Shown here: piece after piece, positions 8,723-24,587 of the stretch | Layout of the letters: each line of letters starts with the position of its first letter | How positions within the stretch are numbered: position 1 is the first letter of the stretch | Made by a program: the position numbers and the translations under genes | Source: Leptospiria bacterium | GTDB taxonomy: Bacteria; Spirochaetota; Leptospiria; Turneriellales; CBDBES01 | NCBI GenBank assembly: GCA_965262015.1 | Contig: OZ253494.1 | Location: 1,402,720-1,466,719 of the forward strand | Reading direction: 5' to 3' | Length of the DNA stretch: 64,000 nucleotides | The notes under the pieces: generated by a model | What the model was told of the DNA's origin: nothing | What the model saw: only the letters and a program-made list of their open reading frames with translations | The model's database searches: none

Positions 8723-8727
8723 AACGT

Positions 8728-10122
8728 TTATCTTTTTAAAGTTAATAGCTCTTGTAGCATCTGGTCTGATGTTGTTATAGCTTTAGAATTAGCTTGAAAA
8801 CCTCTTTGGGTGACAATCATATCTGTAAATTGTTCAGCGAGATCTACATTACTCATTTCAAGCATTCCTGCATGAATTTCACCTAAACCCTGTAGATTGG
8901 CTTCAGAAATCAAAGCTATACCCGAATTATTAGACAACTCAAAATTATTAGATCCTTTTTTAGTTAATCCTTCTGGGTTTGTAAAATTTGCCAGAGCAAC
9001 TTTTGCCAGTATTTCTTGCTCTCCATTAGAGAATACCCCAGTGATACTACCAGAAGAATCAATTTGAAATGACTCTAAATATCCCATAGATTTACCATCT
9101 TGCTCAACAGCTTTTGTGGTAAAAGGCGAAGCAAACTGGGTGATGCCTTCTATGCTACCAGCCTCTCCAAAATTTAGTGCTATATTTTGTATAGCAGGAT
9201 TACCTGGTAATCTAAAAGATAAATTAGCTGATAGATTGCCCTGGTTCTGCGTATTTGTTCCATCAGAAACAAAATTAAGCTTACCATCTGGCGAAAATCC
9301 TAGATTCAGTTGTGTATTGGATGGAAGGTTAACATTTGGTGTTACTTGATTGCTAGTATTGACAGTTAATTGTTCAGCCTCTTCCATAGATATGGATGCA
9401 CTCCATAAATTTTCTTTATCTTTCCACATAACTAATCTTACTTTATGTTGGTTTCCCTGGTCATCAAATACATTAATACTGGTTACATGTCCCTGCTTAT
9501 TCTCATAATTACTATTTGTGATTTGATTTATTTTATCCTGGATACTCAAATTTACTGGCATAGGTTTAGTGGTTGCATCAAGATTACTTTTAAATGCAAT
9601 AAAAGAAGTTGGATTGGCAGCTTCTTTTGAATAAAGAGGAATAAAAATATTCTCAGCATCTGAACTAGCGTTAAGCGTACGGGTACCATCTACGTTTTTA
9701 TTTGAGTTCCACCCTTGTACTTTCATTCCATTAGACGGATTAACTAAATTACCTTGTTTATCTATATCAAAGTTTCCACTACGTGTATAATAATTTTTAC
9801 CCCCATCCGCTAGTACAAAAAAACCTTCTCCTGAAATAGCTAGGTCTGTTCCTTTTCCTGTAGTTTGTAAGGCACCCTGTGTCATTACCTTATCAATGGA
9901 AGCTATGGTCATACCTAAGCCAACTTGTTTTGGGTTAACACCCCCTATATTTTCTTTTGGTGCAGCAGCCCCTTGTAAAGATTGTGATATCATATCTTGA
10001 AACAAGGCCCTTTCATACTTAAAGCCATTAGTGTTGACATTGGATATATTATTACCAATAACATCCATTCTAACCTGATGATTTTTTAGCCCGGCCACAC
10101 CGGAATACAAAGCTCGCATCAT
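8728..10122 (-). CDS. flgE: Flagellar hook protein FlgE (spirochaete type)
   Basis: The N-terminus [35 protein letters not shown] and the C-terminus [30 protein letters not shown] are canonical. An AAGGAGA SD precedes the start. The protein has no Cys, and it carries Ser179 in the FKSNLD motif. Confidence 0.95.
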
Positions 10123-10153
10123 AAAATTTTATCTCCTTTCTACTATTTTATTT

Positions 10154-10630
10154 TTATTTTGTTTCACGTGAAACAATTTCTGGTTTGTTATTTTGTTTAC
10201 TGCCACTAACACTAATTATATCTTGCAGTTTAATGTTTCTATTATTTACTTTTAAGAATGCTTGTTTAGAGCTATCAAAGAAAACTTGTTTCACAGTACC
10301 TGTTATATTTTCTCCAGTTATAAAATCTTTTCCTGTGATTGTTTTTCCAATTAATAAATTAGCTTGAAATCCTTTTAGTGAATTAATGGAAGAAGCCACA
10401 TTATGCATTTGTTCCAACGCAGAGAACTGTGCCATTTGTGAAATGAATTCACGGTCATTTACTGGATTAAGTGGATCCTGGTGTTCTAATTGTTTAATCA
10501 GTAATTTTAAAAAGCTTGCTTTATTTAATTCATCATTTCTCCGGCCAGTAACAATAGTTTTCCGATAAGAATTATTAAAATTACTTTTTACATCATTTAC
10601 ATTAACATTATATTGCTGTACACTAGGCAT
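10154..10630 (-). CDS. flgD: Flagellar hook assembly/capping protein FlgD
   Basis: The segment FLKLLIKQLEHQDPLNPVNDREFISQMAQFSALEQ is the FlgD N-terminal signature. I chose the start at 10630 because a GGAGG SD lies 6 nt upstream, and this start overlaps the fliK stop. Confidence 0.85.
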   Translation of the reverse strand: MPSVQQYNVNVNDVKSNFNNSYRKTIVTGRRNDELNKASFLKLLIKQLEHQDPLNPVNDREFISQMAQFSALEQMHNVASSINSLKGFQANLLIGKTITGKDFITGENITGTVKQVFFDSSKQAFLKVNNRNIKLQDIISVSGSKQNNKPEIVSRETK

Positions 10631-11948
10631 ACAAACCTCCTTGTATTTCTTCTGTGTTAGTAAGATTATAAGAAATACCATCAATCATATTATTATTCTC
10701 ATTTTGTTTTTGATTAGAATTAGTATGATGTTCCAACTCATTATTAGAATTATCTAGATTAACATCAAACTGTTTAATGTCATAGCCATCTTCTTTAAGA
10801 TGATTAAGTAAAGTTTCCATTCTGCCTAATAATTCTTTTTGGACGATCGTATTTTCTACCAAAAAATTTCCATTTAAACTACCATCCACTAAAGATAGTT
10901 TCATTGAAATTTTACCTAATTCTTTGGGATATAGTTGGGCACTAAACATAGCATTATCTTTATCTTTGACCAACATTTTTGATTTTAAAATAAAACTTTG
11001 TAGTTGCTTACCTATCTCGCTACTAGTAAACTTATTATTCATTAATTGTTTGAATAGTGGTTGCATTATCTTTTGTTTGCCTTGCATAATATTAATGGCA
11101 CCATATGCTTTTATACTATTTTTCACTCTAGCAATATTATTTTTAAAGAATTCATTATGTTCTTGATTGCCACTTTTATTAGAGTTAGTGGAAGGATTAT
11201 CCATATTCATGGCCATCATATTTGTTTCACGTGAAACATTTTGAGTTATTTCTGGAACAAACAAACTATTTTTATTCTTTGTTTTATGTGATGAATTATT
11301 AGAACTATCCTCAGTAGTTATCTGTGTAGCTATTGTATTAAATATTTTTTTAGATGCTTGCTGAATAACTTTATGATCTTTATTAGATATGTCTGTGTGG
11401 TTTTCATTTATCTCTATACCATTAGGATCTTCTTTATCTACTTGGTTAGATTTTATATGTGTTTCTAGATCTTCAATAGACGTATGAACAATTGCGTTAG
11501 CCTTAATCTCATTATGTTTTTGCATTGTGACTTCTGGCGTATGTTTTTGCACTGTGACTTCTGGCATATGTTTATGTGCTGTGACTTCTGGCGTATGTTT
11601 GTGTTGTGTTTTGATGGTAGTTGATTGTGGTGCATCTTCATTAGGTATTTTTTGCTTTGTAGCTATTGGAGTATTGTCTATATTTTGTTTTAGAATATCT
11701 GAATCGTTGATAGGTTCCCGCACATTATTATTTTTATCAGCGACTAAATTATGAAAATACGAATCTTGATTTTTTTCAGATATACTATTATTGTTCTTTA
11801 GGTTTTCGCTCTGTATCATTGTTATAAATGAGAGAGGGTTCATAGTAGTTTCCCATTTTGTACGAACCTTGCGTTCTTTGGTAATTTTATTAAGATCTAG
11901 TTGTAGATGATTCTCTTGTTCTACCTTATGTGACAAAGTCTGTACCAT
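10623..11948 (-). CDS. fliK: Flagellar hook-length control protein FliK-like
   Basis: It sits upstream of flgD-flgE and has a low-complexity N/Q/S-rich body. The C-terminal region LYPKELGKISMKLSLVDGSLNGNFLVENTIVQKELLGRMETLLNHLKEDG resembles the Flg_hook domain. Confidence 0.7.
   Translation of the reverse strand: MVQTLSHKVEQENHLQLDLNKITKERKVRTKWETTMNPLSFITMIQSENLKNNNSISEKNQDSYFHNLVADKNNNVREPINDSDILKQNIDNTPIATKQKIPNEDAPQSTTIKTQHKHTPEVTAHKHMPEVTVQKHTPEVTMQKHNEIKANAIVHTSIEDLETHIKSNQVDKEDPNGIEINENHTDISNKDHKVIQQASKKIFNTIATQITTEDSSNNSSHKTKNKNSLFVPEITQNVSRETNMMAMNMDNPSTNSNKSGNQEHNEFFKNNIARVKNSIKAYGAINIMQGKQKIMQPLFKQLMNNKFTSSEIGKQLQSFILKSKMLVKDKDNAMFSAQLYPKELGKISMKLSLVDGSLNGNFLVENTIVQKELLGRMETLLNHLKEDGYDIKQFDVNLDNSNNELEHHTNSNQKQNENNNMIDGISYNLTNTEEIQGGLYA
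11527..11607 (-). repeat. 3 x 27-nt in-frame tandem repeat inside fliK
   Basis: GTGACTTCTGGCRTATGTTTWTGYRCT occurs three times and encodes (H/Q)KH(T/M)PEVT(A/V/M). Confidence 0.85.
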
Positions 11949-12150
11949 ATCCGCCAGCTATCGGCATTTATTTATTTTATTTAACAAAAAATTATATGTA
12001 GTAGATTCTATTTGAATGATGGTGGTTTAATTTAGTTATATTTTTTAAAAATTATATCTCATGAAAGAGAAATACATAGAATCCTTGAATAAGATCAAGA
12101 AGAGTTTACGATATTACAAAGATAATGAGATTCATAAAAAAGCAGGGATT

Positions 12151-12645
12151 GAAGAGCCAGTACCATCTCTGTACAAAATAAACTTGGTTAGCGGTTTTCC
12201 ATTGTAAAGATGGCTTACACATGTTATTAATTATGGTACAAGATCTAAATATATTTTTTTATTTGAACACCTGATCATCTGCCTTTCTGTTAAAATATTT
12301 TTTTAGTTGTTTGATAGAGTTTTTAACCTGCCCTTTTTGTCATGATAAACCCATAGCCAATACATATACAGGAGCATATAGCATTTTCTGTAAATTTATA
12401 AATGATATATTTTCAGTTCCCCTATCACAAATTATCACCCGTATATTTGCCACTCAAGAAAATAAATATTTTCATGTTATATATAAACCTAAAATAAATG
12501 TATATATGAGCTATTTTTCAATAGCTCATATTCTCTAATAAATACTTCTGCATATTTTCATTAGTCATTCTCCTTATTTTTCATCTTTTTAAGAAAAACA
12601 GCTCATGAATACCTTAAACTGTCCAGGGTTGAACTGGCCTTTCAA
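12151..12645 (-). mobile_element. IS30-family remnant (copy 2), internally deleted; forms the left boundary of the array
   Basis: The right-end IR-like GAAGAGCCAGTACCATCTCTGTACAAAATAAACTTGGTTAGC aligns over 42 nt with copy 4 at 52454. It carries a degraded transposase C-terminal region, and the left-end region ends at ...CCAGGGTTGAACTGGCCTTTCAA. Confidence 0.7.
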
Positions 12646-12692
12646 CCAGTTACATAATTTCTTGACTATACACACCTACATCAGATTTATAT

Positions 12693-12727
12693 TTTTCTAA
12701 ATAGGCAGAGCATGCCTATTTAGAAAA
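12693..12727 (+). promoter_or_regulatory. Conserved palindrome/hairpin (15-bp stem, 5-nt loop) ending 8 nt before the start codon of paralog 1
   Basis: The sequence is TTTTCTAAATAGGCA-GAGCA-TGCCTATTTAGAAAA. Copies lie upstream of all four paralogs, and no Shine-Dalgarno is visible between the palindrome and the ATG. Confidence 0.55.
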
Positions 12728-12734
12728 TACAAAT

Positions 12735-14615
12735 ATGAAATACATAAAAAATATGAACACTACGTTAATGAATAGCGTCAATTGGCATCCAAGATGGTCA
12801 TTAGTTATGTGTGTTGGTCTTATGGTATTTATGATCTTTGGCGTATCTCTGTCTACAGGATGTTCTATCACCTTTCCAGGTAGAATAGTCAATCCCCCTC
12901 CCCTCCCTGATATAGATTGCCCTACAGGTATGGCTCGCCTTGCAAATACTTCTAAAAAAACTACAGACACCTGCATGCTTGATGCCGGTGGTGATGGTAT
13001 TCCTAATTCCACGGATACTGATGGCGATGGTATTCCTGATTCCATGGATGTAGATGCTGATGGTGATGGTTTGATAGAGATAAAAACTGCTGAGATGCTA
13101 GATAACATGCGCTATGATTTGGCGGGAACAAGCTATAAGACCTCGGCGACACAAACAACAGGTAATACAGATGGTTGCCCTGCTGTTGGCAGTGGTGGTT
13201 GTAACGGCTACGAACTAACGGCCGACATTGATCTTTTGAGCTTGCTTGATGCCAACGGTAATGGGATGATCGATACGACGATGGAGGGCATTGATAAAAA
13301 TGCCGACGGCGATACTACAGATATCGGTGAGCAAATAACAGTTATTGATACTACTGCAGATACAAGCTGGATGCCTATTGGTGATAATTCGACAAATGAT
13401 GACATAACTCGCTTCACAGGCACTTTTGAGGGCAACAACCATACTATCGCCAACCTTTGGGTGAATATCTCTTCTTCTGCCTCTAACGCCTATGCGGGTT
13501 TGTTTGGCGTGACGGGTGGCACGGTGACCATTCGCAACCTGGAGATTATCGACGGCTCAATTTATTCTTATTCCACGGGTTCTAATTTTAATCCTGTCTC
13601 TGGCGGTCTGGTGGGACTTTCTGCTGCTTCTTTGATGATTATGAATAGTACTTTTAGTGGGTCTGGTGGAGTCTTTTCTTCTGCCGCTGCTAATTCTACT
13701 AATACTCTTTCTCGCTCAGGTGGCATGGTAGGGCAGGCTGATAATACTTTGACGATCATCAAGTGTATTTTTAGTGCATCTGGTGGAGTCTCTTCTTCTT
13801 CTACTAATTCTTCTTCCCGTTCTGATTCTGGTGGTCTAGTGGGTACTTCTTCGTCTTTAACAATAACCAATAGTACTTTTAGTGGGTTAGGTGGGGTTTC
13901 TTCTTCCTCTACCGCTACTACTACTCTTCGTGATTCTCTTGCAGGCGGTATTGTTGGTTTTCCTACTGGTATCTCAACTATCACCAATTCGTATTTTAGT
14001 GGATCTGGTGGAGTCTCTTCTTCTTCTACGACTACCGATTCTTATGTTGGCGGTCTGGTGGGGACTAGTAATGCTTCTTTCATGATCAAAAATAGTTATT
14101 TTTCTGGGTTTGGTGATATCTTTTCTTTTGCTTCTGGTGGGTCGTCTATATCAGGTGGTCTGGTTGCTCACAGTCACCATGGCACTCCTTTAACGATCAT
14201 CAATAGTTATTTTAGTGGATCTGGTAAAGTCTCTTCTTCTACCTCAGGTTCTGTATCTTATTCAGGTGGTCTGGTGGGTCGTTCTACTGCTTCTTTGACG
14301 ATCACAAACAGTTATTGGAATACAGAGACATCTCAAAGTGTGGGAGGCTCTCCCCAAAACCCAAAACGGGCACAGGGTAATGCTGCGATGAACCCATCAG
14401 GCACAACTGGCCTCACCTTAGTGCAACTGCAAGCTATCACTGGCATACACCCATCTGGTCTGCCACATAGTGCCACCGACGACACCAAAGCGTGGGACCT
14501 TGGCACCGATATGCAATTACCTGCGGTTAAGCTGTGTATCCCCACGATCACAAGCGGTGTCGCTAACTGGGCGATATGTGCATCATACGGCACTCTGCTT
14601 GCCGGGCAAAGATAG
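12735..14615 (+). CDS. Surface lipoprotein paralog 1: TSP3-like Ca-binding module plus 7 GLUG-type repeats
   Basis: This 626-aa protein has a signal peptide ending LSTGC (Cys43). It carries one DCPTGMARLANTSKKTTDTC loop and the DTDGDGIPDSMDVDADGDG motif, then a core FTGTFEGNNHTIANLW...GLFG. Seven GG(L/M/I)VG...I.NS.FSG.G repeats follow, and the C-terminus is NSYWNTET...WDLGT..QLPAVKLC...LLAGQR. Confidence 0.85.
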   Translation: MKYIKNMNTTLMNSVNWHPRWSLVMCVGLMVFMIFGVSLSTGCSITFPGRIVNPPPLPDIDCPTGMARLANTSKKTTDTCMLDAGGDGIPNSTDTDGDGIPDSMDVDADGDGLIEIKTAEMLDNMRYDLAGTSYKTSATQTTGNTDGCPAVGSGGCNGYELTADIDLLSLLDANGNGMIDTTMEGIDKNADGDTTDIGEQITVIDTTADTSWMPIGDNSTNDDITRFTGTFEGNNHTIANLWVNISSSASNAYAGLFGVTGGTVTIRNLEIIDGSIYSYSTGSNFNPVSGGLVGLSAASLMIMNSTFSGSGGVFSSAAANSTNTLSRSGGMVGQADNTLTIIKCIFSASGGVSSSSTNSSSRSDSGGLVGTSSSLTITNSTFSGLGGVSSSSTATTTLRDSLAGGIVGFPTGISTITNSYFSGSGGVSSSSTTTDSYVGGLVGTSNASFMIKNSYFSGFGDIFSFASGGSSISGGLVAHSHHGTPLTIINSYFSGSGKVSSSTSGSVSYSGGLVGRSTASLTITNSYWNTETSQSVGGSPQNPKRAQGNAAMNPSGTTGLTLVQLQAITGIHPSGLPHSATDDTKAWDLGTDMQLPAVKLCIPTITSGVANWAICASYGTLLAGQR

Positions 14616-14700
14616 ACGACTGCCATCCAGTGATGCTCTACTCGCTGGGCGAAGATAAGCATTACCGACAATAGTACTGAGGATAAAGTAACCAAAGGGC

Positions 14701-15066
14701 TTGCTAGGATTAAAAGAAACTGGTGTTTCAGCACCCACGACAAGTTATGGATTCGGCACTGCAACTGGAGAAATGGATGGTGGATATGGTACCTCCATTC
14801 CATCAAGCATAGGTAGTGCAGGAACTGCAACGGAGCGTGCTGCTAAGTTGACGTCAAGCGACGTTGATGTATCATCGTGGAATGATGTTAGTCAAAACAC
14901 CAAAGGTGCTTGGAACTTCGGTACCCTTATGCAAATCCCTGCCCTTAAATACGCCGACTATGACGGTACTGGTACTATATTCTATTGCAACAGTGTTATG
15001 TCTACACCTACAACTGGAATTCCTATTCCTAACTGTGGTGAATTCATCCCTGGACAGGCTAGGTAG
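14701..15066 (+). CDS. Hypothetical 121-aa ORF homologous to the C-terminal domain of the lipoprotein paralogs (possible domain relic)
   Basis: It has a TTG start. Its C-terminus TKGAWNFGTLMQIPALKYADYDGTG..FYC...IPNCGEFIPGQAR parallels TKAWDLGTASQLPAVKLC...CASYGALLAGQR. An identical copy lies at 23702-24067. Confidence 0.35.
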   Translation: MLGLKETGVSAPTTSYGFGTATGEMDGGYGTSIPSSIGSAGTATERAAKLTSSDVDVSSWNDVSQNTKGAWNFGTLMQIPALKYADYDGTGTIFYCNSVMSTPTTGIPIPNCGEFIPGQAR

Positions 15067-15130
15067 AAGGTGGTGAAAGAGATCATATCACCTTCTGCTT
15101 AAGAATATATCTGCAGGGCTTTAAGGAATT

Positions 15131-15175
15131 GAGCGTTAGAGCTGAACAGAGCCAAAACAATAGACCTGGCTTAGC
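15131..15175 (-). repeat. Extra solo copy of the IS right-end IR-like sequence
   Basis: GAGCGTTAGAGCTGAACAGAGCCAAAACAATAGACCTGGCTTAGC resembles the IR region CTGGACAGAATAGACTTGGTTAGC of copy 4. It recurs at about 21261 and about 24140. Confidence 0.5.
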
Positions 15176-15215
15176 TATTATTTGCAAAATTTAGATTAGA
15201 TTTTTATTTTCTTTT

Positions 15216-15245
15216 AACGGTGTTGGTTCTTGTACCAACACCGTT
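15216..15245. repeat. Perfect 12-bp-stem hairpin (AACGGTGTTGGT-TCTTGT-ACCAACACCGTT) inside the inter-IR segment
   Basis: I read it directly, and copies lie at 21346-21375 and 24217-24246. It is absent from the unit 2/3 junction. Confidence 0.8.
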
Positions 15246-15271
15246 ATTCATGTTGATTGATCCTGTAAAAT

Positions 15272-15505
15272 CGAGAAATTAGCATTTGCTCTGGACAGAA
15301 ATAGGCCTGGCTTAGCCTAGTATCTTTATCTCATAAAAGACAGCAGATTTTGATAGATTTATTTTATGAGCTATTTTTCAATAGCTCATATTCTCTAATA
15401 AATACTTCTGCATATTTTTATTAGTTATTCTCCTTATTTTTCATCTTTTTAAGAAAAACAGCTCATGAATACCTTAAACCGTCCAGGGTTGAACTAGCCT
15501 TTCAA
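15272..15505 (-). mobile_element. MITE-like IS30 derivative at the unit 1/2 boundary
   Basis: The right-end IR-like ...CTCTGGACAGAAATAGGCCTGGCTTAGCC is joined directly to the IS 5' region (GAGCTATTTTTCAATAGCTC...AAGAAAAACAGCTCATGAATACCTTAAACCGTCCAGGGTTGAACTAGCCTTTCAA). There is no transposase ORF. Confidence 0.6.
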
Positions 15506-15550
15506 CCAGTTACACAATTCTTGACCATACACATCTACTTAGGTGCATGG

Positions 15551-15583
15551 CTTCTAAATAGGCAGAGTATGCCTATTTAGAAG
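15551..15583 (+). promoter_or_regulatory. Conserved leader palindrome (14-bp stem) upstream of paralog 2
   Basis: The sequence is CTTCTAAATAGGCA-GAGTA-TGCCTATTTAGAAG. The outer stem pair C:G replaces the T:A of units 1 and 3, so both arms changed. Confidence 0.55.
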
Positions 15584-15591
15584 ATACAAAT

Positions 15592-18111
15592 ATGAAATAC
15601 ATAAAAAATATGAACACTACGTTAATGAATAGCGTCAATTGGCATGCAAGATGGTCATTAGTTATATGTGTTGGTCTTATGGTATTTATGATCTTTGGCG
15701 TATCTTTGTCTACAGGATGTTCTATCACCTTTCCAGGTAGAATAGTCAATCCCCCTCCCCTCCCCGATGTAGATTGCCCTACAGGTACGGCTCGCCTTGC
15801 AAATACTTCTAAAAAAACTACAGACACCTGCATGCTTGATGCTGATTCCGATGCTCCTGATGTAGATTGCCCTACGGGTATGGCTCGCCTTGCAAATGCT
15901 TCTAAAAAAACTACAGACACCTGCATGCCCGATACTGATGGTGACGGTACTCCTGATGTAACTTGTCTTATGGGCACCATTCGTTTGGCAGGTACTTCTA
16001 TAAATACTATGGACACTTGTGTCCCCGATGATGACGGCGATGGTATTCCTGATTCCATGGATGTAGATGCTGATGGTGATGGTTTGATAGAGATAAAAAC
16101 TGCTGAGATGCTAGATAACATGCGCTATGATTTGGCGGGAACAAGCTATAAGACTAAGGCTCAGGACTTAGCGGGTGAAGATGGTAATACAGATGGTTGC
16201 CCTGCTGTTGTTAGTAGCAGTGGAGATTGTAACGGCTACGAACTAACGGCCGACATTGATCTTTTGAGCTTGCTTGATGCAAATGGCAATGGGATGATTG
16301 ATACGACGATGGAGGGCATTGATAAAAATACTGACGGCGATACAACAGATGCAGGTGAGCAAATAACAGTTATTGATATAGGTACGGGCAAAGACAAAAG
16401 TTGGGTGCCCATTGGTACTACTGGCACGGAGAACAGCTTCACAGGCACTTTTGAAGGCAATAACCACACCATCGCTAACCTTTGGGTGAATATCTCTTCT
16501 TCTAGCTCTACTGTTTATGCGGGTTTGTTTGGTCTAGCGGGTGGCCCGAGCATTCGTAATGTGGGGGTTATTTCAGGTTCAATTCACGCTTTTTCTTCTG
16601 ATTCTTCTTCTGAGTCTTATTCAGGCGGTTTGGTGGGTTATTCTGGGAGTACTTTGAGTATTACGAATAGTTATTTTAGCGGTGGGGGTGGAGTTTCTTC
16701 TAATTCTTATTCTAATTCAGGCGGTTTGGTGGGTTATTCTGGGAGTACTTTGACAATAACGAATAGTTATTTTAGCGGTGCGGGTGGAGTTTCTTCTGCT
16801 TCTTCTTCAGGCGGTTTGGTGGGTTATTCTGGGAGTACTTTGAGTATTACGAATAGTTATTTTAGTGGTGTGGGTGGAGTTTCTGATTCTTCTGCTTTTC
16901 GTTCTTCTTCAGGCGGTTTGGTGGGTTATTCTGTGGGGAGTACTTTGAGTATTACGAATAGTTATTTTAGCGGTGGGGGTGGAGTTTCTTCTTCTACTTC
17001 TTCTAGTTCCTCTGAGTCTTATTCAGGCGGTTTGGTGGGTTATTCTAGAAGTACTTTGATAATAACGAATAGTTATTTTAGCGGTGGGGGTGGAGTTTCT
17101 ACTTCTTCTGCTTTTCGTTCTTCTTCAGGCGGTTTGGTGGGTTATTCTGAGAGTACTTTGAGTATTATGAATAGTTATTTTAGCGGTGTGGGTGGAGTTT
17201 CTTCTGATTCTTCTTCTTCTAATTCAGGCGGTTTGGTGGGTTATTCTGGGAGTACTTTGAGTATTACGAATAGTTATTTTAGCGGTGCGGGTGGAGTTTC
17301 TTCTGCTTCTTCTTCAGGTGGTTTGGTGGGTTATTCTGGGAGTACTTTGAGTATTACGAATAGTTATTTTAGTGGTGTGGGTGGAGTTTCTGATTCTTCT
17401 GCTTTTCGTTCTTCTTCAGGCGGTTTGGTGGGTTATTCTGGGAGTACTTTGAGTATTACGAATAGTTATTTTAGCGGTGGGGATGGAGTTTCTTCTAATT
17501 CTACTACTTCTTCTTCTAATTCAGGCGGTTTGGTGGGTTATTCTCAGAGTGGGAGTACTTTGATGATTATGAATAGTTATTTTAGCGGTGGGGGTGGAGT
17601 TTCTTCTAATTCTACTACTTCTTCTTCTAATTCAGGCGGTTTGGTGGGTTATTCTGTGGGGAGTACTTTGAGTATTACGAATAGTTATTTTAGCGGTGGG
17701 GGTGGAGTTTCTTCTAATTCTACTACTTCTTCTTCTAATTCAGGCGGTTTGGTGGGTTATTCTGTGAGTACTGTGAGTACTTTGACGATTACGAATAGTT
17801 ATTGGGACAACAGTGTGCCTCAAAGTGTAGATGGCTCTCCCCAAAGTCTGCGGGTCGTGGGTAGCTCTTCGACGAATCCAATGGGTGCAACTGGTCTCAC
17901 CTTAACGCAACTACAAGCTATCACTGTTAGCACTACAAGTGCCCCATCCCCATCTGGTTTGCCACATAGTGCCACTGATAATACCAAATCTTGGGACCTA
18001 GGCACCGCAAGCCAGCTACCTGCGGTTAAGTTATGCGTTAGCCCCACGGTTAGCAGCACCAACGTTGTAACATGTGCGTCATACGGTGCTCTGCTTGCCG
18101 GGCAACGATAG
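15592..18111 (+). CDS. Surface lipoprotein paralog 2: three Cys-loop/TSP3-like modules plus 12 GLUG-type repeats
   Basis: This 839-aa protein has the same signal peptide and LSTGC as paralog 1. It carries three (V/I)DCPTG.ARLAN.SKKTTDTC-type modules and 12 copies of GGLVGYS.STL.I.NSYFSG.GGVS with Ser-rich spacers. Confidence 0.85.
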   Translation: MKYIKNMNTTLMNSVNWHARWSLVICVGLMVFMIFGVSLSTGCSITFPGRIVNPPPLPDVDCPTGTARLANTSKKTTDTCMLDADSDAPDVDCPTGMARLANASKKTTDTCMPDTDGDGTPDVTCLMGTIRLAGTSINTMDTCVPDDDGDGIPDSMDVDADGDGLIEIKTAEMLDNMRYDLAGTSYKTKAQDLAGEDGNTDGCPAVVSSSGDCNGYELTADIDLLSLLDANGNGMIDTTMEGIDKNTDGDTTDAGEQITVIDIGTGKDKSWVPIGTTGTENSFTGTFEGNNHTIANLWVNISSSSSTVYAGLFGLAGGPSIRNVGVISGSIHAFSSDSSSESYSGGLVGYSGSTLSITNSYFSGGGGVSSNSYSNSGGLVGYSGSTLTITNSYFSGAGGVSSASSSGGLVGYSGSTLSITNSYFSGVGGVSDSSAFRSSSGGLVGYSVGSTLSITNSYFSGGGGVSSSTSSSSSESYSGGLVGYSRSTLIITNSYFSGGGGVSTSSAFRSSSGGLVGYSESTLSIMNSYFSGVGGVSSDSSSSNSGGLVGYSGSTLSITNSYFSGAGGVSSASSSGGLVGYSGSTLSITNSYFSGVGGVSDSSAFRSSSGGLVGYSGSTLSITNSYFSGGDGVSSNSTTSSSNSGGLVGYSQSGSTLMIMNSYFSGGGGVSSNSTTSSSNSGGLVGYSVGSTLSITNSYFSGGGGVSSNSTTSSSNSGGLVGYSVSTVSTLTITNSYWDNSVPQSVDGSPQSLRVVGSSSTNPMGATGLTLTQLQAITVSTTSAPSPSGLPHSATDNTKSWDLGTASQLPAVKLCVSPTVSSTNVVTCASYGALLAGQR
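16621..17805 (+). repeat. Intragenic near-identical 90-114-nt tandem repeats (12 units) with a 507-nt higher-order duplication
   Basis: The unit TCAGGCGGTTTGGTGGGTTATTCTGGGAGTACTTTGAGTATTACGAATAGTTATTTTAGCGGTG.GGGTGGAGTTTCT recurs. Repeats 2-3 (from 16717) recur almost base-for-base as repeats 7-8 (from 17224). Confidence 0.9.
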
Positions 18112-18125
18112 ACGACTGCCATCCA

Positions 18126-18229
18126 GTGATGCTCTACTCACTGGGCAAAGATAAGCATTGCCGACCGATAGTACTGAGTGATGCTCTATTCACTGGGCGA
18201 AGATAAGCACTGCCGACCGATAGTACTGA
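18126..18229 (+). repeat. 2 x 52-nt tandem copy of a stop-containing tail motif derived from the gene 3' terminus
   Basis: GTGATGCTCTAYTCACTGGGCRAAGATAAGCAYTGCCGACCGATAGTACTGA occurs twice here. Single copies lie in units 1, 3 and 4. It encodes SDAL(L/F)TG(Q/R)R*, compare the gene end YGALLAGQR*. Confidence 0.8.
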
Positions 18230-18407
18230 GGATAAAGTAACCAAAGGTGCTTGGAATTTTGGCACCCTTATGCAAATCCCTGCCCTTAAATACGCCGACT
18301 ATGACGGTACTGGTACTATATTCTATTGCAACAGTGTTATGTCTACACCTACAACTGGAATTCCTATTCCTAACTGTGGTGAATTCATCCCTGGACAGGG
18401 TCGGTAG
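18207..18407 (+). pseudogene. Truncated relic of the downstream C-terminal-domain module (unit 2)
   Basis: It reads ...STEDKVTKGAWNFGTLMQIPALKYADYDGTGTIFYCNSVMSTPTTGIPIPNCGEFIPGQGR*. It lacks the 208 nt present in units 1 and 4 between the direct repeats ACCAAAGG, and it has no usable start codon. Confidence 0.6.
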
Positions 18408-18470
18408 AAGGTGGTGAAAGAGATCATCACCTCCTGCTTAAGAATATATCTGCAGGGCTTTAAGAAATTA

Positions 18471-18702
18471 AGCATTAGAGCTGAACAGAGCCAAAACAAT
18501 AGACCTGGCTTAGCCTAGTATCTTTATCTCATACAGGACAGTAGATTTTGATAGATTGATTTTTTGAGCTATTTTTCAATAGCTCATATTCTCTAATAAA
18601 TACTTCTGTATATTTTGATAAGCTGTTCTTCCTGAATCTTATTATTTAAGAAAAACAGCTCATGAATACCTTAAAACATCCAGGGTTGAACTTGCCTTTC
18701 AA
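18471..18702 (-). mobile_element. MITE-like IS30 derivative at the unit 2/3 boundary (single IR copy, hairpin segment deleted)
   Basis: AGCATTAGAGCTGAACAGAGCCAAAACAATAGACCTGGCTTAGCCTAG is followed directly by the IS 5' region, ending ...CCAGGGTTGAACTTGCCTTTCAA. Confidence 0.6.
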
Positions 18703-18749
18703 CCAGTTACATAATTTCTTGACTATACACACCTACATCAGATTTATAT

Positions 18750-18784
18750 TTTTCTAAATAGGCAGAGCATGCCTATTTAGAAAA
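18750..18784 (+). promoter_or_regulatory. Conserved leader palindrome (15-bp stem) upstream of paralog 3
   Basis: The sequence TTTTCTAAATAGGCA-GAGCA-TGCCTATTTAGAAAA is identical to the unit 1 copy. Confidence 0.55.
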
Positions 18785-18791
18785 TACAAAT

Positions 18792-20936
18792 ATGAAATAC
18801 ATAAAAAATAAGAATACTACGTTAATGAATAGCGTCAATTGGCATCCAAGATGGTCATTAGTTATGTGTGTTGGTCTTATGGTATTTATGATCTTTGGCG
18901 TATCTTTGTCTACAGGATGTTCTATCACCTTTCCAGGTAGAATAGTCAATCCCCCTCCCCTCCCTGATATAGATTGCCCTACGGGTATGGCTCGCCTTGC
19001 AAATACTTCTAAAAAAATTACAGACACCTGCACGCTTGATGCCGATTCCATTAATACGGATGATGACGGCGATGGTATTCCTGATTCCATGGATGTAGAT
19101 GCTGATGGTGATGGTTTGATAGAGATAAAAAATGCCGTGATGCTAGATAACATGCGCCATGATCTATCGGGTACCAGCTATAAGACTAAGGCTCAGGACT
19201 TAGCGGGTGAAGATGGTAATACAGATGGTTGCCCTGCTGTTGTTAGTGGCAGTGGTGGTTGTAACGGCTACGAACTAACGGCCGATATTGATCTTTTGAG
19301 TTTGCTTGATGCCAACGGTAATGGGATGATCGATACGACGATGGAGGGCATTGATAAAAATGCTGACGGCGATACGACAGATGCAGGTGAGCAAATAACA
19401 GTTATTGATATAGGTACGGGAAAAGATAAAAGTTGGGTGCCCATTGGTACCGTTGGCACGGGGAAAAGCTTCACAGGCACTTTTGAAGGCAATAACCACA
19501 CCATCGCTAACCTTTGGATGAATAGCTCTAATGTCTATACGGGCTTATTTGGTGTAACGGGTGGCACGGTGGCCATTCGCAATGTGGGGGTTATTTCAGG
19601 TTTAATTCACGTTTCTTCTTCTAATTCTGGTTCAGGCGGTTTGGTGGGTTATTCTGGGAGTGGGAGTACTTTGACAATAACGAATAGTTATTTTAGTGGT
19701 GCGGGTGGAGTTTCTTCTCCTTATTCTGCTTCTTATTCAGGCGGTTTGGTGGGTTATTCTGGGAGTGGGAGTACTTTGACAATAACGAATAGTTATTTTA
19801 GTGGTGCGGGTGGAGTTTTTTCTGCTTCTGGTTCAGGCGGTTTGGTGGGTTATTCTGGGAGTACTTTGACAATAACGAATAGTTATTTTAGCGGTGGGGG
19901 TGGAGTTTCTTCTTCTAATTCTTCAGGCGGTTTGGTGGGTGTTTCTGAGAGTACTTTGACAATAACAAATAGTTATTTTAGCGGTGGGGGTGGAGTTTCT
20001 TCTGTTTCTTCTTCTTCTAATTCTTCAGGCGGTTTGGTGGGTTATTCTGGGAGTATGAGTACTTTGATAATAACGAATAGTTATTTTAGCGGTGGGGGTG
20101 GAGTTTCTTCCTCCTCTTCTTCTTATTCTTATTCAGGCGGTTTGGTGGGTTTTTCTGAGAGTACTTTGAGTATTACGAATAGTTATTTTAGCGGTGGGGG
20201 TGGAGTTTCTTCCTCCTCTTCTTCTTATTCTTATTCAGGCGGTTTGGTGGGTTTTTCTGGGAGTACTTTGAGTATTACGAATAGTTATTTTAGCGGTGGG
20301 GGTGGAGTTTCTTCCTCCTCTTCTTCTTCTGTTGCTACTGCTTCTTCTTCTTCAGGCGGTTTGGTGGGTTTTTCTGGGGGTACTTTGAGTATTGCGAATA
20401 GTTATTTTAGTGGTGAGGGTGGAGTTTCTACTACTACTTCTTCTTCTTCTTCTTATTCAGGCGGTTTGGTGGGTTATTCTGGGAGTACTTTGAGTATTAC
20501 GAATAGTTATTTTAGCGGTGGGGGTGGAGTTTCTTCCTCCTCTTCTTCTTCTTCTCATTCAGGCGGTTTGGTGGGTTCTTCTCAGAGTGGGAGTACTTTG
20601 ATGATTATGAATAGTTATTGGAACACAGACGCCCCTCAAAAAATAACTAATGGAATGACTGATCAAAGCCCAAAGCTGGCAGTGGGTAACTCTTCGACGA
20701 ATCGAATGGGTACAACTGGTCTCACCTTAACGCAACTACAAGCTATCACTGTTAGTACTACAAGTGCCCCATCCCCATCTGGTTTGCCACATAGTGCCAC
20801 TGATAATACCAAAGCTTGGGACCTAGGCACCGCAAGCCAGCTACCTGCGGTTAAGTTATGCGTTAGCCCCACGGTTAGCAGCACCAACGTTGTAACATGT
20901 GCATCATACGGTGCTCTGCTTGCCGGGCAACGATAG
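18792..20936 (+). CDS. Surface lipoprotein paralog 3: one Cys-loop/TSP3-like module plus 10 GLUG-type repeats
   Basis: This 714-aa protein has the same signal peptide and LSTGC. It carries 10 copies of GGLVG(Y/F/V/S)S..STL.I.NSYFSG.GGVS. Its C-terminal 90 aa are nearly identical to paralog 2. Confidence 0.85.
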   Translation: MKYIKNKNTTLMNSVNWHPRWSLVMCVGLMVFMIFGVSLSTGCSITFPGRIVNPPPLPDIDCPTGMARLANTSKKITDTCTLDADSINTDDDGDGIPDSMDVDADGDGLIEIKNAVMLDNMRHDLSGTSYKTKAQDLAGEDGNTDGCPAVVSGSGGCNGYELTADIDLLSLLDANGNGMIDTTMEGIDKNADGDTTDAGEQITVIDIGTGKDKSWVPIGTVGTGKSFTGTFEGNNHTIANLWMNSSNVYTGLFGVTGGTVAIRNVGVISGLIHVSSSNSGSGGLVGYSGSGSTLTITNSYFSGAGGVSSPYSASYSGGLVGYSGSGSTLTITNSYFSGAGGVFSASGSGGLVGYSGSTLTITNSYFSGGGGVSSSNSSGGLVGVSESTLTITNSYFSGGGGVSSVSSSSNSSGGLVGYSGSMSTLIITNSYFSGGGGVSSSSSSYSYSGGLVGFSESTLSITNSYFSGGGGVSSSSSSYSYSGGLVGFSGSTLSITNSYFSGGGGVSSSSSSSVATASSSSGGLVGFSGGTLSIANSYFSGEGGVSTTTSSSSSYSGGLVGYSGSTLSITNSYFSGGGGVSSSSSSSSHSGGLVGSSQSGSTLMIMNSYWNTDAPQKITNGMTDQSPKLAVGNSSTNRMGTTGLTLTQLQAITVSTTSAPSPSGLPHSATDNTKAWDLGTASQLPAVKLCVSPTVSSTNVVTCASYGALLAGQR
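19632..20622 (+). repeat. Intragenic near-identical tandem repeats (10 units) with (TCT)n-rich spacers
   Basis: The repeat consensus is the same as in paralog 2. Spacers contain TCTTCTTCTTCT... runs of variable length. Confidence 0.9.
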
Positions 20937-21000
20937 ACGACTGCCATCCAGTGATGCTCTACTCACTGGGCAAAGATAAGCATTGCCGACCGATAGTACT

Positions 21001-21197
21001 GAGGATAAAGTAACCAAAGGGCTTGGAGCTTTGTCACTGGTAAAATCCCTGCCCTTAAATACGCCGACTATGCAGACTATGACGGTACTGGTACTACATT
21101 CTATTGCAACAGTGTTATGTCTACACCTGCAACGGGAATGGGAATGCCCATGCCCATTCCTAACTGTGGTGAATTTATCCCTGGACAGGGTCGGTAG
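21001..21197 (+). pseudogene. Frameshifted relic of the downstream C-terminal-domain module (unit 3)
   Basis: The homologous frame reads ...IPALKYADYADYDGTGTTFYCNSVMSTPATGMGMPMPIPNCGEFIPGQGR*. A 4-nt length difference upstream breaks the frame, so the track ORF 20983-21207 is in a different frame. Confidence 0.55.
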
Positions 21198-21401
21198 AAG
21201 GTGGTGAAAGAGATCATCACCTTCTGCTTAAGAATATATCTGCAGGGCTTTAAGGAATTGAGCGTTAGAGCTGAACAGAGCCAAGAAAGGTAGACCTGGC
21301 TTAGCTATTATTTGCAAAATTTAGATTAGATTTTTATTTTCTTTTAACGGTGTTGGTTCTTGCACCAACACCGTTGTTCATGTTGATTGATCTTGTAAAA
21401 T

Positions 21402-21634
21402 CAAGAAATTAGCATTGGCTCTGGACAGAAATAGACCTGGCCTAACCTCGTATCTTTATCTCATAAAAGACAGCAGATTTTGGTATATGTATATATGAGC
21501 TATTTTTCAATAGCTCATATTCTCTAATAAATACTTCTGCATATTTTTATTAGTTATTCTCCTTATTTTTCATCTTTTTAAGAAAAACAGCTCATGAATA
21601 CCTTAAACCGTCCAGGGTTGAACTAGCCTTTCAA
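21402..21634 (-). mobile_element. MITE-like IS30 derivative at the unit 3/4 boundary
   Basis: It has the same architecture as 15272-15505, and an extra IR copy lies at about 21261-21305. Confidence 0.6.
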
Positions 21635-21679
21635 CCAGTTACACAATTCTTGACCATACACATCTACTTAGGTGCATGG

Positions 21680-21712
21680 CTTCTAAATAGGCAGAGTATG
21701 CCTATTTAGAAG
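21680..21712 (+). promoter_or_regulatory. Conserved leader palindrome (14-bp stem) upstream of paralog 4
   Basis: The sequence CTTCTAAATAGGCA-GAGTA-TGCCTATTTAGAAG is identical to the unit 2 copy. Confidence 0.55.
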
Positions 21713-21720
21713 ATACAAAT

Positions 21721-23616
21721 ATGAAATACATAAAAAATATGAACACTACGTTAATGAATAGCGTCAATTGGCATCCAAGATGGTCATTAGTTATGTGTGT
21801 TGGTCTTATGGTATTTATGATCTTTGGCGTATCTTTGTCTACAGGATGTTCTATCACCTTTCCAGGTAGAATAGTCAATCCCCCTCCCCTCCCCGATGTA
21901 GATTGCCCTACAGGTACGGCTCGCCTTGCAAATACTTCTAAAAAAACTACAGACACCTGCATGCTTGATGCCGATTCCGATGCTCCTGATGTAGATTGCC
22001 CTACGGGTATGGCTCGCCTTGCAAATGCTTCTAAAAAAACTACAGACACCTGCATGCCCGATACTGATGGTGACGGTACTCCTGATGTAACTTGTCTTAT
22101 GGGCACCATTCGTTTGGCAGGTACTTCTATAAATACTATGGACACTTGTGTCCCCGATGATGACGGCGATGGTATTCCTGATTCCATGGATGTAGATGCT
22201 GATGGTGATGGTTTGATAGAGATAAAAACTGCTGAGATGCTAGATAACATGCGCTATGATTTGGCGGGAACAAGCTATAAGACCTCGGCGACACAAACAA
22301 CAGGTAATACAGATGGTTGCCCTGCTGTTGGCAGTGGTGGTTGTAACGGCTACGAACTAACGGCCGATATTGATCTTTTGAGTTTGCTTGATGCCAACGG
22401 TAATGGGATGATCGATACGACGATGGAGGGCATTGATAAAAATGCTGACGGCGATACGACAGATGCAGGTGAGCAAATAACAGTTATTGATACTACTGCA
22501 GATACAAGCTGGATGCCTATTGGTGATAATTCGACAAATGATGACATAACTCGCTTCACAGGCACTTTTGAGGGCAACAACCACACCATCGCCAACCTCT
22601 GGGTGAATATTTCTTCTTCGGATAACGCCCATGCGGGTTTATTTGGCGTAACGGGTGGAACAACGGTGACCATTCGCAATGTGAGTGTCATTTCAGGCTC
22701 AATTCATTCTTCTGCTACTTCTGCTTCTGGTCAATCTAATGCAGGCGGTTTGGTGGGACTTTCTACTGCTTCTTTAATAATAAGTGATTGTACTTTTTCT
22801 GGATCGCTTGGGGTCTCTACTTCTAATAATGCTGGCGGTCTAGTGGGTGCGTCTGGTGCTCCTTTAATAATAAGCAATTGTACTTTTTTGGGGTCGGGTG
22901 ATATCTCTTCTTCTAATCAAAGTGGTTCTTCTGCTGGTGGTCTGGTGGGGTGGATTAGTTCTTCTTTGACAATCACTAATTCCATTTTTTCTGGGTCGGG
23001 TGATATCTCTGCTTCTGCTTCTAATGGTTCTACTCATTCTGGCGGTCTGGTGGGGTGGATGAGTTCTTCTTTGACAATCACTAATTGCATTTTTTCTGGG
23101 TCGGGTGATATCTCTGCTTCTTCTCCTTCTGCTTCTAATAGTTCTATTGTTGGCGGTTTGACTGGTCACGCTTACTCTACCTCTCCCGTTTCTTGGACAA
23201 TTACTAATTGCAGTTTCTTTGGCTCTGGTCAAATCTCTTCTATGGGTACTAATAGTTTTACTGTTGGCGGTTTGATTGGAACTACTAACAGTTCTTTGAC
23301 GATAAGAAACAGTTATTGGAACAAAGATGCCATCCAAAGAGTGGGTGGCTCTAACCAAAGCCCCAAGAGGGCGAAGGGTGACGCTTCTTCAGATCCATCT
23401 GGCACGATTGGCCTCACCTTAGTAGAACTGCAAGCTATTACTGGCATACACCCATCTGGTTTGCCACATAGTGCCACCGACAGCACCAAAGCTTGGGACC
23501 TAGGCACTGCAAGCCAGCTACCCGCTATTAAGCTGTGTATTCCCACCATCACAAGCGGTGTCACCGATTGGACGATGTGTGCGTCATACGGTGCTCTGCT
23601 TGCTGGGCAACGATAG
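21721..23616 (+). CDS. Surface lipoprotein paralog 4 (chimeric): three Cys-loop/TSP3-like modules plus 6 divergent GLUG-type repeats
   Basis: This 631-aa protein has a 5' part of about 470-560 nt almost identical to paralog 2. Its central region is of the paralog 1 type with a paralog 3 patch. It carries six GGL(V/T/I)G...I(S/T)N(C/S).F.GSG.IS repeats. Confidence 0.85.
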   Translation: MKYIKNMNTTLMNSVNWHPRWSLVMCVGLMVFMIFGVSLSTGCSITFPGRIVNPPPLPDVDCPTGTARLANTSKKTTDTCMLDADSDAPDVDCPTGMARLANASKKTTDTCMPDTDGDGTPDVTCLMGTIRLAGTSINTMDTCVPDDDGDGIPDSMDVDADGDGLIEIKTAEMLDNMRYDLAGTSYKTSATQTTGNTDGCPAVGSGGCNGYELTADIDLLSLLDANGNGMIDTTMEGIDKNADGDTTDAGEQITVIDTTADTSWMPIGDNSTNDDITRFTGTFEGNNHTIANLWVNISSSDNAHAGLFGVTGGTTVTIRNVSVISGSIHSSATSASGQSNAGGLVGLSTASLIISDCTFSGSLGVSTSNNAGGLVGASGAPLIISNCTFLGSGDISSSNQSGSSAGGLVGWISSSLTITNSIFSGSGDISASASNGSTHSGGLVGWMSSSLTITNCIFSGSGDISASSPSASNSSIVGGLTGHAYSTSPVSWTITNCSFFGSGQISSMGTNSFTVGGLIGTTNSSLTIRNSYWNKDAIQRVGGSNQSPKRAKGDASSDPSGTIGLTLVELQAITGIHPSGLPHSATDSTKAWDLGTASQLPAIKLCIPTITSGVTDWTMCASYGALLAGQR

Positions 23617-23701
23617 ACGACTGCCATCCAGTGATGCTCTACTCGCTGGGCGAAGATAAGCATTACCGACAATAGTACTGAGGATAAAGTAACCAAAGGG
23701 C

Positions 23702-24067
23702 TTGCTAGGATTAAAAGAAACTGGTGTTTCAGCACCCACGACAAGTTATGGATTCGGCACTGCAACTGGAGAAATGGATGGTGGATATGGTACCTCCATT
23801 CCATCAAGCATAGGTAGTGCAGGAACTGCAACGGAGCGTGCTGCTAAGTTGACGTCAAGCGACGTTGATGTATCATCGTGGAATGATGTTAGTCAAAACA
23901 CCAAAGGTGCTTGGAACTTCGGTACCCTTATGCAAATCCCTGCCCTTAAATACGCCGACTATGACGGTACTGGTACTATATTCTATTGCAACAGTGTTAT
24001 GTCTACACCTACAACTGGAATTCCTATTCCTAACTGTGGTGAATTCATCCCTGGACAGGCTAGGTAG
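23702..24067 (+). CDS. Hypothetical 121-aa C-terminal-domain-like ORF (identical copy of 14701-15066)
   Basis: The protein sequence in the track is identical to that of 14701-15066. Confidence 0.35.
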   Translation: MLGLKETGVSAPTTSYGFGTATGEMDGGYGTSIPSSIGSAGTATERAAKLTSSDVDVSSWNDVSQNTKGAWNFGTLMQIPALKYADYDGTGTIFYCNSVMSTPTTGIPIPNCGEFIPGQAR

Positions 24068-24272
24068 AAGGTGGTGAAAGAGATCATATCACCTTCTGCT
24101 TAAGAATATATCTGCAGGGCTTTAAGGAATTGAGCGTTAGAGCTGAACAGAGCCAAAACAATAGACCTGGCTTAGCTATTATTTGCAAAATTTAGATTAG
24201 ATTTTTATTTTCTTTTAACGGTGTTGGTTCTTGTACCAACACCGTTGTTCATGTTGATTGATCCTGTAAAAT

Positions 24273-24506: not shown

Positions 24507-24587
24507 GATTTTTCAATAGTTTCTGTACAATATAGATAAAAAAATCTTGTCAAAATGCTAAAATATTTAAATTGATTACTAATCTTG

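Follow-up and report, generated by a model that had tools for sequence, protein, structure and literature searches.

A putatively recombining GLUG repeat array in one of four tandem, probable lipoprotein genes of an uncultured Leptospirales bacterium

The 64,000-nucleotide (nt) stretch of DNA analysed here, hereafter the window, to whose positions all coordinates refer, belongs to an uncultured Leptospirales bacterium with ca. 31% guanine-plus-cytosine (GC) content. Four paralogous genes, P1 to P4, follow one another in tandem on the + strand of the window, and their deduced products contain arrays of GLUG repeats. The repeat units are nearly identical at the DNA level in P2 and P3 and far more diverged in P1 and P4, which raises the question of whether the array of P2 is being remodelled by recombination, or whether the similarity of its units is due to constraint, to a single past amplification or to an assembly error. 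The analysis covers the assembled sequence of one genome, and relatives were used for comparison. We consider that a recombining array of GLUG units, predicted to build a beta-helix, is the best explanation for P2, with a probability of roughly 0.7.

Sequence identity among the repeat units

Units were counted in each translation as anchors of the form xGG[LMI][VTI]G. The four open reading frames (ORFs), their lengths in amino acids (aa) and their arrays are as follows:

12735-14615, + strand: P1, 626 aa, array at 13599-14318 with 7 diverged units (ORF and anchor count)
15592-18111, + strand: P2, 839 aa, array at 16621-17805 with 12 units (ORF, translation and anchor count)
18792-20936, + strand: P3, 714 aa, array at 19632-20621 with 10 units (ORF and anchor count)
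21721-23616, + strand: P4, 631 aa, array at 22741-23319 with 6 diverged units (ORF and anchor count)
16621-17805, + strand: GLUG array of P2, 12 in-frame units of 90-114 nt, the last of them ending in NSYW

Anchor counting thus reproduced the 7, 12, 10 and 6 units reported for the four paralogs in the initial annotation. The units of P2 start at 16621, 16717, 16807, 16909, 17023, 17125, 17224, 17314, 17416, 17521, 17632 and 17740, and in each of them a Ser/Thr/Asn-rich spacer comes after the core peptide, SGGLVGYSGSTLSITNSYFSGGGGVS. Tandem Repeats Finder, suggested as a check in the initial annotation, likewise recovered the arrays of P2 (16592-17779, 11.7 copies with a period of 102, 83% matches and 9% indels) and P3 (19613-20619, ca. 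9.4 copies with the same period). The core, first put at ca. 60 nt, measures 78 nt and occurs 10 times with up to 3 mismatches, against 0 occurrences expected from shuffled sequences; it is exactly identical between 16621 in P2 and 20457 in P3, and its 51-nt 3' part occurs 15 times. The spacers do vary, as had been noted, but since units span 30-39 aa they comprise ca. 4-13 residues instead of 6-15, and variation is not confined to them, because the core itself carries small extra indels (YS-G/VG/QSG/VSTV-STL). Runs of (TCT)n are indeed present in the spacers, in frame and as the sole microsatellite in the window, but they are short, with no more than five copies. That all changes stay in frame is also true, yet it is a trivial consequence of an intact ORF: every unit length is a multiple of 3 nt, and the changes of frame or promoter spacing that characterize a frameshift contingency locus were not found.

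To compare units at the DNA level, the blocks SGGLVG, LSITNSYF and SGGGGVS from all of them were aligned codon by codon, and synonymous (dS) and nonsynonymous (dN) divergence were estimated by the Nei-Gojobori method (NG86). The core nucleotide identity, the fraction of identical codons where the amino acid is the same, and dS were, respectively:

P2 units: 0.95, 0.957 and 0.057
P3 units: 0.94, 0.935 and 0.088
P2 units against P3 units: 0.95, 0.942 and 0.080
P1 units: 0.73, 0.60 and 0.589
P4 units: 0.76, 0.63 and 0.581

The units of P1 and P4 are therefore ten times as diverged at synonymous sites as those of P2 and P3. These values bear out two claims of the initial annotation, that the core is almost identical in bases from unit to unit in P2 and P3, and that the repeats of P1 and P4 are much more diverged. 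The dN/dS ratio was 0.5-0.6 in all comparisons, and positive selection on the cores was rejected on this ground.

Such similarity could arise in old and static arrays if selection acting on the protein, codon usage or the structure of messenger RNA kept the units alike, and two observations fit this possibility: the core peptide shows ca. 90-100% amino acid identity across genomes, and dN/dS is below 1. However, synonymous sites are homogenised only in P2 and P3 of this genome (dS 0.06-0.09), while the units of P1 and P4, in the same cluster, differ with a dS of ca. 0.58. As an outside control, we used two family members from a relative, L081 (ENA ERZ25069296, a contig of 734,679 bp), whose cores are ca. 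90% identical in residues to those of P2 and P3; the fraction of identical codons in this comparison drops to 0.50-0.56, with 0.375 predicted from codon usage alone. The relative thus encodes the same peptide with other codons and, therefore, protein constraint cannot explain the identity of the P2 and P3 units. Additionally, the seven Gly positions of the consensus core each keep their own codon (GGC, GGT, GGT, GGT, GGG, GGT and GGA, in order), with few or no exceptions among the 20 units of P2 and P3, and core position 21 is GGG whenever it encodes Gly; such position-specific codons favour identity by descent over codon bias. Constraint is, in our estimation, an extremely improbable cause of the pattern. 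The codon data instead indicate that the units of P2 and P3 are identical by recent descent, through concerted evolution.

This process appears to encompass both genes. Units from P2 and P3 interleave in clustering, with 96% identity between the second unit of P2 and the third of P3 (P2.2 and P3.3), and the longest exact stretch common to both arrays is 80 nt; therefore, the two arrays behave as one pool of units. The four arrays also differ in their content of exact direct repeats of at least 25 nt within the array:

P2: 77 repeats, the longest of 121 nt
P3: 34 repeats, the longest of 85 nt
P1: 1 repeat, of 27 nt
P4: 2 repeats, the longest of 34 nt

Within P2, the initial annotation described that repeats 2-3 recur as repeats 7-8 at an offset of 507 nt, and took this as a recent duplication of a block of five repeats. 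The recurrence is evident, and it involves the following segments:

16710-16933, + strand: two-unit segment, source or copy A, units 2-3 with spacers SSASS and DSSAFRSS, 98.2% identical to 17217-17440
17217-17440, + strand: two-unit segment, copy B, units 7-8, 98.2% identical to 16710-16933

These segments align over 224 nt with only 4 mismatches and include an exact run of 121 nt; unit 2 is 97% identical to unit 7, and unit 3 is 99% identical to unit 8. In contrast, units 4, 5 and 6 show 87, 84 and 88% identity to units 9, 10 and 11, which is the background of the array. The 507-nt offset therefore marks a copy of two units, with no preserved block of five, and the duplication is not supported in the form first proposed. 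The event could be either a conversion or insertion patch of ca. 224 nt, or a duplication of five units followed by the loss of three. Taking units 7-8 away would leave P2 with 10 units, as many as P3 has. A further group is made up of units 9-11:

17416-17739, + strand: units 9-11, local tandem triplet with the common spacer SSNSTTSSSN and a period of 105-111 nt, 91-96% identical in pairwise comparisons

Tandem Repeats Finder detected 4.7 copies with a period of 108 at 17300-17803, and an exact run of 88 nt occurs at offset 108. This triplet is a second young event. Events in the arrays thus differ in age, from the 224 nt at 98.2% identity and the triplet at 91-96% to the remaining pairs of units, at 75-92%.

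Exchange among the paralogs and their predicted products

Comparison of the paralogs in sliding windows, together with a search for long near-identical tracts, revealed a checkerboard of such tracts across the cluster:

15365-16154 and 21494-22283, + strand: upstream region and 5' coding part of P2, as in P4; 790 nt, 3 mismatches
14611-15335 and 23612-24336, + strand: region downstream of P1, as downstream of P4; 725 nt, 1 mismatch
13023-13441 and 22165-22583: middle of P1, as in the middle of P4; 419 nt, 7 mismatches
12622-12975 and 18679-19032: 5' part of P1, as in P3; 354 nt, 6 mismatches
17888-18178 and 20713-21003, + strand: 3' end of P2, as in P3; 291 nt, 3 mismatches

The middle of P2 (16144-16485) is also ca. 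95% identical to 19176-19517 in P3. P2 is thus similar to P4 at its 5' end and to P3 from ca. 16150 onward. We consider this mosaic to be stronger evidence for active gene conversion than the pattern within the genes alone and, taken with it, to make recombination and gene conversion in the cluster a well-supported interpretation.

A different account of the same data would be that P2 and P3 arose in a single, rather recent amplification with gene duplication, after which they remained stable, and that their copy numbers reflect a fixed history without a role in variation. The collinear pairs P2.2-P3.3, P2.4-P3.7 and P2.9-P3.9 fit a common ancestral array, and we found no gene for a dedicated recombinase, nor any switch element, in the window. 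Nevertheless, the identity of unit pairs grades continuously from 75% up to 99%, at least two young, nested events can be distinguished, the tracts shared by paralogs, with 1-3 mismatches in 725-790 nt, are younger than most of the divergence among units, and many long exact repeats are still available as substrate. We therefore regard a past burst followed by stability as unlikely.

It is less likely still that collapse or expansion of repeats, polishing or a chimeric join during assembly created the units, the 507-nt recurrence and the tract common to P2 and P4. The sequence appears to come from a contig of the metagenome-assembled genome (MAG) type, of 1,922,353 bp. The products of P1, P3 and P4 are public proteins from this contig, identical from internal Met starts, with P3 identical to P0001 from Met12 onward, whereas that of P2, which has the longest array, was not found in the public collection with any of three starts. 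P2 may be missing there through a problem of annotation or assembly located precisely in this gene; a pseudogene flag, a gene call that differs or a difference in sequence could be the cause. On the other hand, none of the four ORFs is broken, the order of spacers is unique to each, and copies differ by scattered substitutions. The 3' two-thirds of P2 are 92-99% identical to P3, below the 100% of a simple chimera, and P2 contains private spacers. Moreover, independently assembled relatives show a similar architecture and low dS between units.

The near-identity of the units in P2 and P3 is thus best supported as the result of recent copying of DNA, by unequal recombination or gene conversion, and not of protein constraint. 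Unequal recombination, named in the initial annotation, or gene conversion is favoured by the dS values, the codons and the tracts between paralogs, whereas slippage on (TCT)n, also named there, is weakly supported, given the short runs. We propose that units of P2 and P3 have been recently duplicated, deleted and overwritten, the likely route being homologous recombination between misaligned units, with unequal exchange plus gene conversion and, possibly, replication slippage. The exact repeats of 25-121 nt would serve as recombination substrate and keep these arrays fluid, while those of P1 and P4 would have diverged past the substrate threshold and be frozen; general knowledge of homology-dependent recombination suggests that units below the needed length of exact homology would drop out of the process. 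Through the same recombination, the four paralogs also exchange tracts of 290-790 nt.

What such changes might mean for the cell depends on the protein. The product of P2 comprises, in this order, a signal peptide that ends in LSTGC, with the Cys at residue 43, three Cys modules of 31 aa each, an Asp-rich segment with calcium-type motifs similar to TSP3, a conserved cap domain containing FTGTFEGNNHTIANLW, the 12 GLUG units and a conserved C-terminal domain of ca. 100 aa with two Cys, which ends in LLAGQR; the C-termini of the four proteins read ASYGALLAGQR. The Cys module represents a second intragenic repeat, of 93 nt (DVDCPTGxARLANxSKKTTDTCMxD), located at 15766-15939 in P2 and 21895-22068 in P4; it is present in three copies in P2 and P4 and in one in P1 and P3, and the number of N-terminal modules is thus also variable among the paralogs. 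The N-terminus shows a basic n-region and a hydrophobic core preceding L-S-T-G-C43, with FLFQC in the relatives, and spirochaete lipoboxes are looser than the canonical one; the products of P1-P4 are probable lipoproteins.

The Pfam family GLUG (PF07581, gathering cut-off 20.5 bits) matched P1 and P2 with 39 and 28 bits, with P3 (19.8) and P4 (18.6) just under the cut-off. Pfam detected no other domain in the four proteins, and NCBIfam gave nothing meaningful. A search of PDB with a single sequence had no match and a family profile was needed: the profile of 50 members matched residues 176-364, the GLUG region, of the Streptococcus pneumoniae IgA1 protease (E = 1.9e-6). In the AlphaFold2 model of P2, built with the family alignment, the repeat region has a predicted local distance difference test score (pLDDT) of ca. 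60-94 and contains three short strands per unit. With this predicted model as query, the top match of Foldseek against PDB was 3N6Z, a 'putative IgA1 protease' from Bacteroides ovatus (probability 1.0, template modelling score of 0.54 on the target, 20% identity), followed by phage tailspikes, autotransporter passengers and IgA1 proteases. All these are right-handed beta-helices and, therefore, the repeats are predicted to be coils of the helix and the Ser/Thr/Asn spacers its loops, each unit corresponding to one three-stranded coil. The stacking as a beta-helix raised in the initial annotation is thus backed by the model, whereas the description of the repeats as a stalk is not, for the coils would constitute the body of the helix.

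Two other identities were considered and rejected. An IgA1 protease was ruled out by the lack of a catalytic domain, as Pfam found no protease domain and the HExxH motif is absent from all four proteins; LPXTG is also absent from the four translations. A phage tail spike was considered since the GLUG genes of a relative follow prophage head, neck and sheath genes, and was ruled out by the lipoprotein-type signal peptides, the truncated state of that prophage, a weak PHROGs match of unknown function and weak viral fold matches.

With this architecture, recombination would change the number of coils, and hence protein length, as well as the set of loops, while keeping frame and fold, and could generate heritable variation in the length and surface of a cell-envelope protein. 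We infer lipidation and surface exposure of the products, as well as the recombination pathway, the ongoing nature of the process, the epitope variation put forward in the initial annotation and any role in the interaction with a host or its immunity. It is also conceivable, although we hold it to be rather doubtful, that the four genes work together as a system in which recombination varies envelope proteins, in a small-genome lineage that is maybe host-associated. Whole coils would be gained, lost and converted, which would tune the length of the helix and its repertoire of loops, with P2 and P3 as variable and P1 and P4 as stable members, and the family, present in dozens of copies in a relative of 2.1 Mb, would be the main surface-variation toolkit of the clade.

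Some observations weigh against a recombining array of this type in P2. The data come from one genome, so that variation in copy number among cells or isolates would be a prediction; a search of metagenomes for other strains with the exact 21-nt core pattern gave 0 matches, and a profile scan of metagenomes retrieved only distant relatives, with 28-40% identity. The short (TCT)n runs make classical microsatellite slippage a weak contributor, and the dN/dS of the cores is below 1, without sign of diversifying selection. The product of P2 is the only one absent from the public collection. The model of this protein as a whole has a mean pLDDT of 64.9, and its 155 N-terminal and 85 C-terminal residues, below 50, are unmodelled. 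Finally, L-S-T-G-C departs from the canonical lipobox and does not match the strict pattern [LVI][ASTVI][GAS]C; its assignment is by visual inspection only.

Genomic setting and relatives

The cluster is flanked by housekeeping genes, with fliK-flgD-flgE on one side and fabD, a short-chain dehydrogenase/reductase (SDR) gene, fabG and fabF on the other. FlgE from the window is at most 67% identical to that of any species representative, the best matches being from 'Leptospiria' and Turneriellaceae MAGs, followed by Leptospira. The four-gene block (11949-24584), including its intergenic DNA, has a GC content of 38-54%, and of 36-40% at third codon positions (GC3), with 31-34% and 19-27%, respectively, in the flanks. 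None of 80 related genomes contains GLUG genes beside flgE, and synteny ends at fliK-flgD-flgE. Both the distinct GC content and this absence fit a block that was inserted or acquired not long ago, possibly as an island gained by horizontal transfer.

Upstream of each paralog there is a perfect 13-bp inverted repeat, TTCTAAATAGGCA-N5-TGCCTATTTAGAA, at 12695-12725, 15552-15582, 18752-18782 and 21681-21711, ending ca. 10 nt ahead of the ATG, and its 3' arm abuts the likely ribosome-binding region. As RNA, it folds with ca. -21 kcal/mol (z-scores of -4.3 to -7.4), and a role as a hairpin in translation or as a palindromic operator is possible. The sequence preceding it exists as two alleles (12640-12700 versus 15500-15552, and also 18700-18752 and 21630-21681), containing TCAGATTTATATTTT in P1 and P3 and TTAGGTGCATGGC in P2 and P4. 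A consensus scan identified a promoter-like site, TTGAAC-18-CATAAT, for P1 and P3 only, but the scan is too weak to interpret the difference at -10; the pairs P1/P3 and P2/P4 may be differently expressed. All four genes have full 5' ends and a common upstream region, and we found no silent cassettes or mutable, long homopolymers among them.

Three intergenic regions contain a conserved, terminator-like hairpin with a 13-bp stem, TAACGGTGTTGGT-N6-ACCAACACCGTT (15215-15246, 21345-21376 and 24216-24247), which is missing from the shorter spacer between P2 and P3 and probably ends the upstream transcription unit. Downstream of each paralog there is also a putative relic fragment, at 14701-15066 (as an ORF, inside the 725-nt tract) and 23702-24067, with shorter remnants at 18112-18500 and 20937-21300. 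These fragments encode KGAWNFGTLMQIPALKYADYDGTGTIFYCNSV and, further on, CGEFIPGQ, and resemble the C-terminal domain of the family (AWDLGT..QLPAVKLC, a further C and a final GQR); they had no match in Pfam, and are probably what remains of a different member of the family, or else an alternative cassette for the 3' end. Two tandem repeats occur nearby, one of 52 nt in 2.0 copies at 18125-18230, directly past the stop codon of P2 in the P2-P3 intergenic region, and another of 27 nt in 3.3 copies at 11513-11600, inside a fliK-like gene (10623-11948, minus strand).

The family is large. A word-indexed search gave 1133 matches, and at least 37 of the top 120 are on a single contig of 2.13 Mb; the relatives have 2-14 units and 462-1435 aa. 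An exhaustive search retrieved 3608 cluster representatives at E ≤1e-3, 273 of them at E ≤1e-30, including giant proteins of 2-7 thousand residues with many copies of the module. Arrays in relatives are also homogenised, with dS of 0.09-0.19 and a codon identity of 0.87, and therefore array turnover is a trait of the family; one relative carries pure (TTC)9-12 tracts in its spacers.

The arrangement of these genes is diverse. In L081 (1-14048), two GLUG lipoprotein genes (7837-9654 and 10001-11776) are located directly after prophage head, protease, major capsid, neck and truncated tail-sheath genes, and are followed by a DDE transposase. In another relative, L161 (ENA ERZ26693861, a contig of 2,133,161 bp, 8490-14158), a GLUG gene at 10001-12139 lies between Transposase_31/Rpn-like genes (PF04754 with HTH_Rpn_C), which looks like a composite element; two further large ORFs occur at 14888-18774, and the second one (16615-18774) was confirmed as a family member. 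From these contexts, the family seems to tend toward rearrangement hot-spots. Likewise, P0003 (1028 aa) contains two complete modules of cap, GLUG array and C-terminal domain fused in one ORF, and the giant representatives P0121-P0232 show up to ca. 30 matched stretches in 2,000-7,000 aa. The module thus occurs in two arrangements, as genes in tandem and as giant proteins composed of many modules. Our searches of the literature for GLUG combined with either Leptospira or beta-helix retrieved nothing, and the family therefore appears to be undescribed.

Comparison with known systems

If array length varies in populations, P2 would represent a natural folded beta-solenoid that changes its length coil by coil through recombination, and the family would be a candidate for surface variation in a Leptospirales lineage known from MAGs alone. 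Fluid and frozen arrays side by side would also illustrate the escape from concerted evolution once exact homology becomes too short. On the practical side, errors of assembly and annotation are likely at this cluster, which could also be of use as a marker for strain typing.

The closest relatives in fold are the GLUG beta-helices in the N-terminal region of the streptococcal M26 IgA1 proteases (PDB 6XJA, 6XJB and 7UVL) and of BACOVA_03286 from B. ovatus (PDB 3N6Z), which contain the same motif, GGLxG followed by N-S-Y/x-F/x-G. Both are extracellular or cell-envelope proteins, a location that is also predicted for the products of P1-P4. Unlike the IgA1 proteases, however, these products have no metalloprotease domain, HExxH or LPXTG, and possess their own lipoprotein-type N-terminus, cap and C-terminal domain; besides, arrays of the P2/P3 type are far more regular and are homogenised at the DNA level.

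Pmp and pertactin-type passengers are also right-handed beta-helices of short Gly-rich repeats and belong to multi-gene tandem families, as predicted for P1-P4, and UpaB, pertactin and Hbp were among the Foldseek matches. Chlamydial Pmp proteins carry the motifs GGA[ILV] and FxxN, and pertactin shows polymorphism of repeats and loops on the surface of the helix. Pfam detected neither the autotransporter beta-barrel nor the Pmp repeat (PF02415) in the four proteins; autotransporters are anchored by their barrel, whereas the products of P1-P4 would presumably be anchored by lipid.

In their genetics, the four genes are reminiscent of vsa from Mycoplasma pulmonis and vlp from M. hyorhinis, clustered paralogous lipoprotein genes in which in-frame repeats of changing number alter protein length (PMC6080569). 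The likeness lies in the near-identical, in-frame DNA repeats (dS of 0.06-0.09 and exact runs of up to 121 nt) and in the logic of recombination between paralogs. In contrast, the Vsa system has a single expression site, silent genes truncated at the 5' end and site-specific inversion, while P1-P4 are all complete and have a common upstream region. Vlp proteins are switched on and off through a poly(A) tract in the promoter. Moreover, the mycoplasma repeats are short and extended or disordered, whereas those of P1-P4 are predicted coils of a beta-helix, known from the sequence of one genome. In the toolkit role tentatively proposed above, the family would be a counterpart of Vsa/Vlp or Tpr/Vls with a GLUG beta-solenoid as its scaffold.

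More generally, intragenic repeats that are homogenised through gene conversion or unequal recombination, while the non-repetitive termini stay conserved, have been described for spidroins and for microbial cell-surface genes (PMC3933166, PMC3899988). Compared with these cases, the one described here concerns another class of proteins and another organism, and homogenised and escaped arrays adjoin in one cluster of four genes. In all, it is a clear, if conventional, case of concerted evolution, by a mechanism that is well known in bacteria, acting on an unstudied protein family that is expanded in a Leptospirales lineage.

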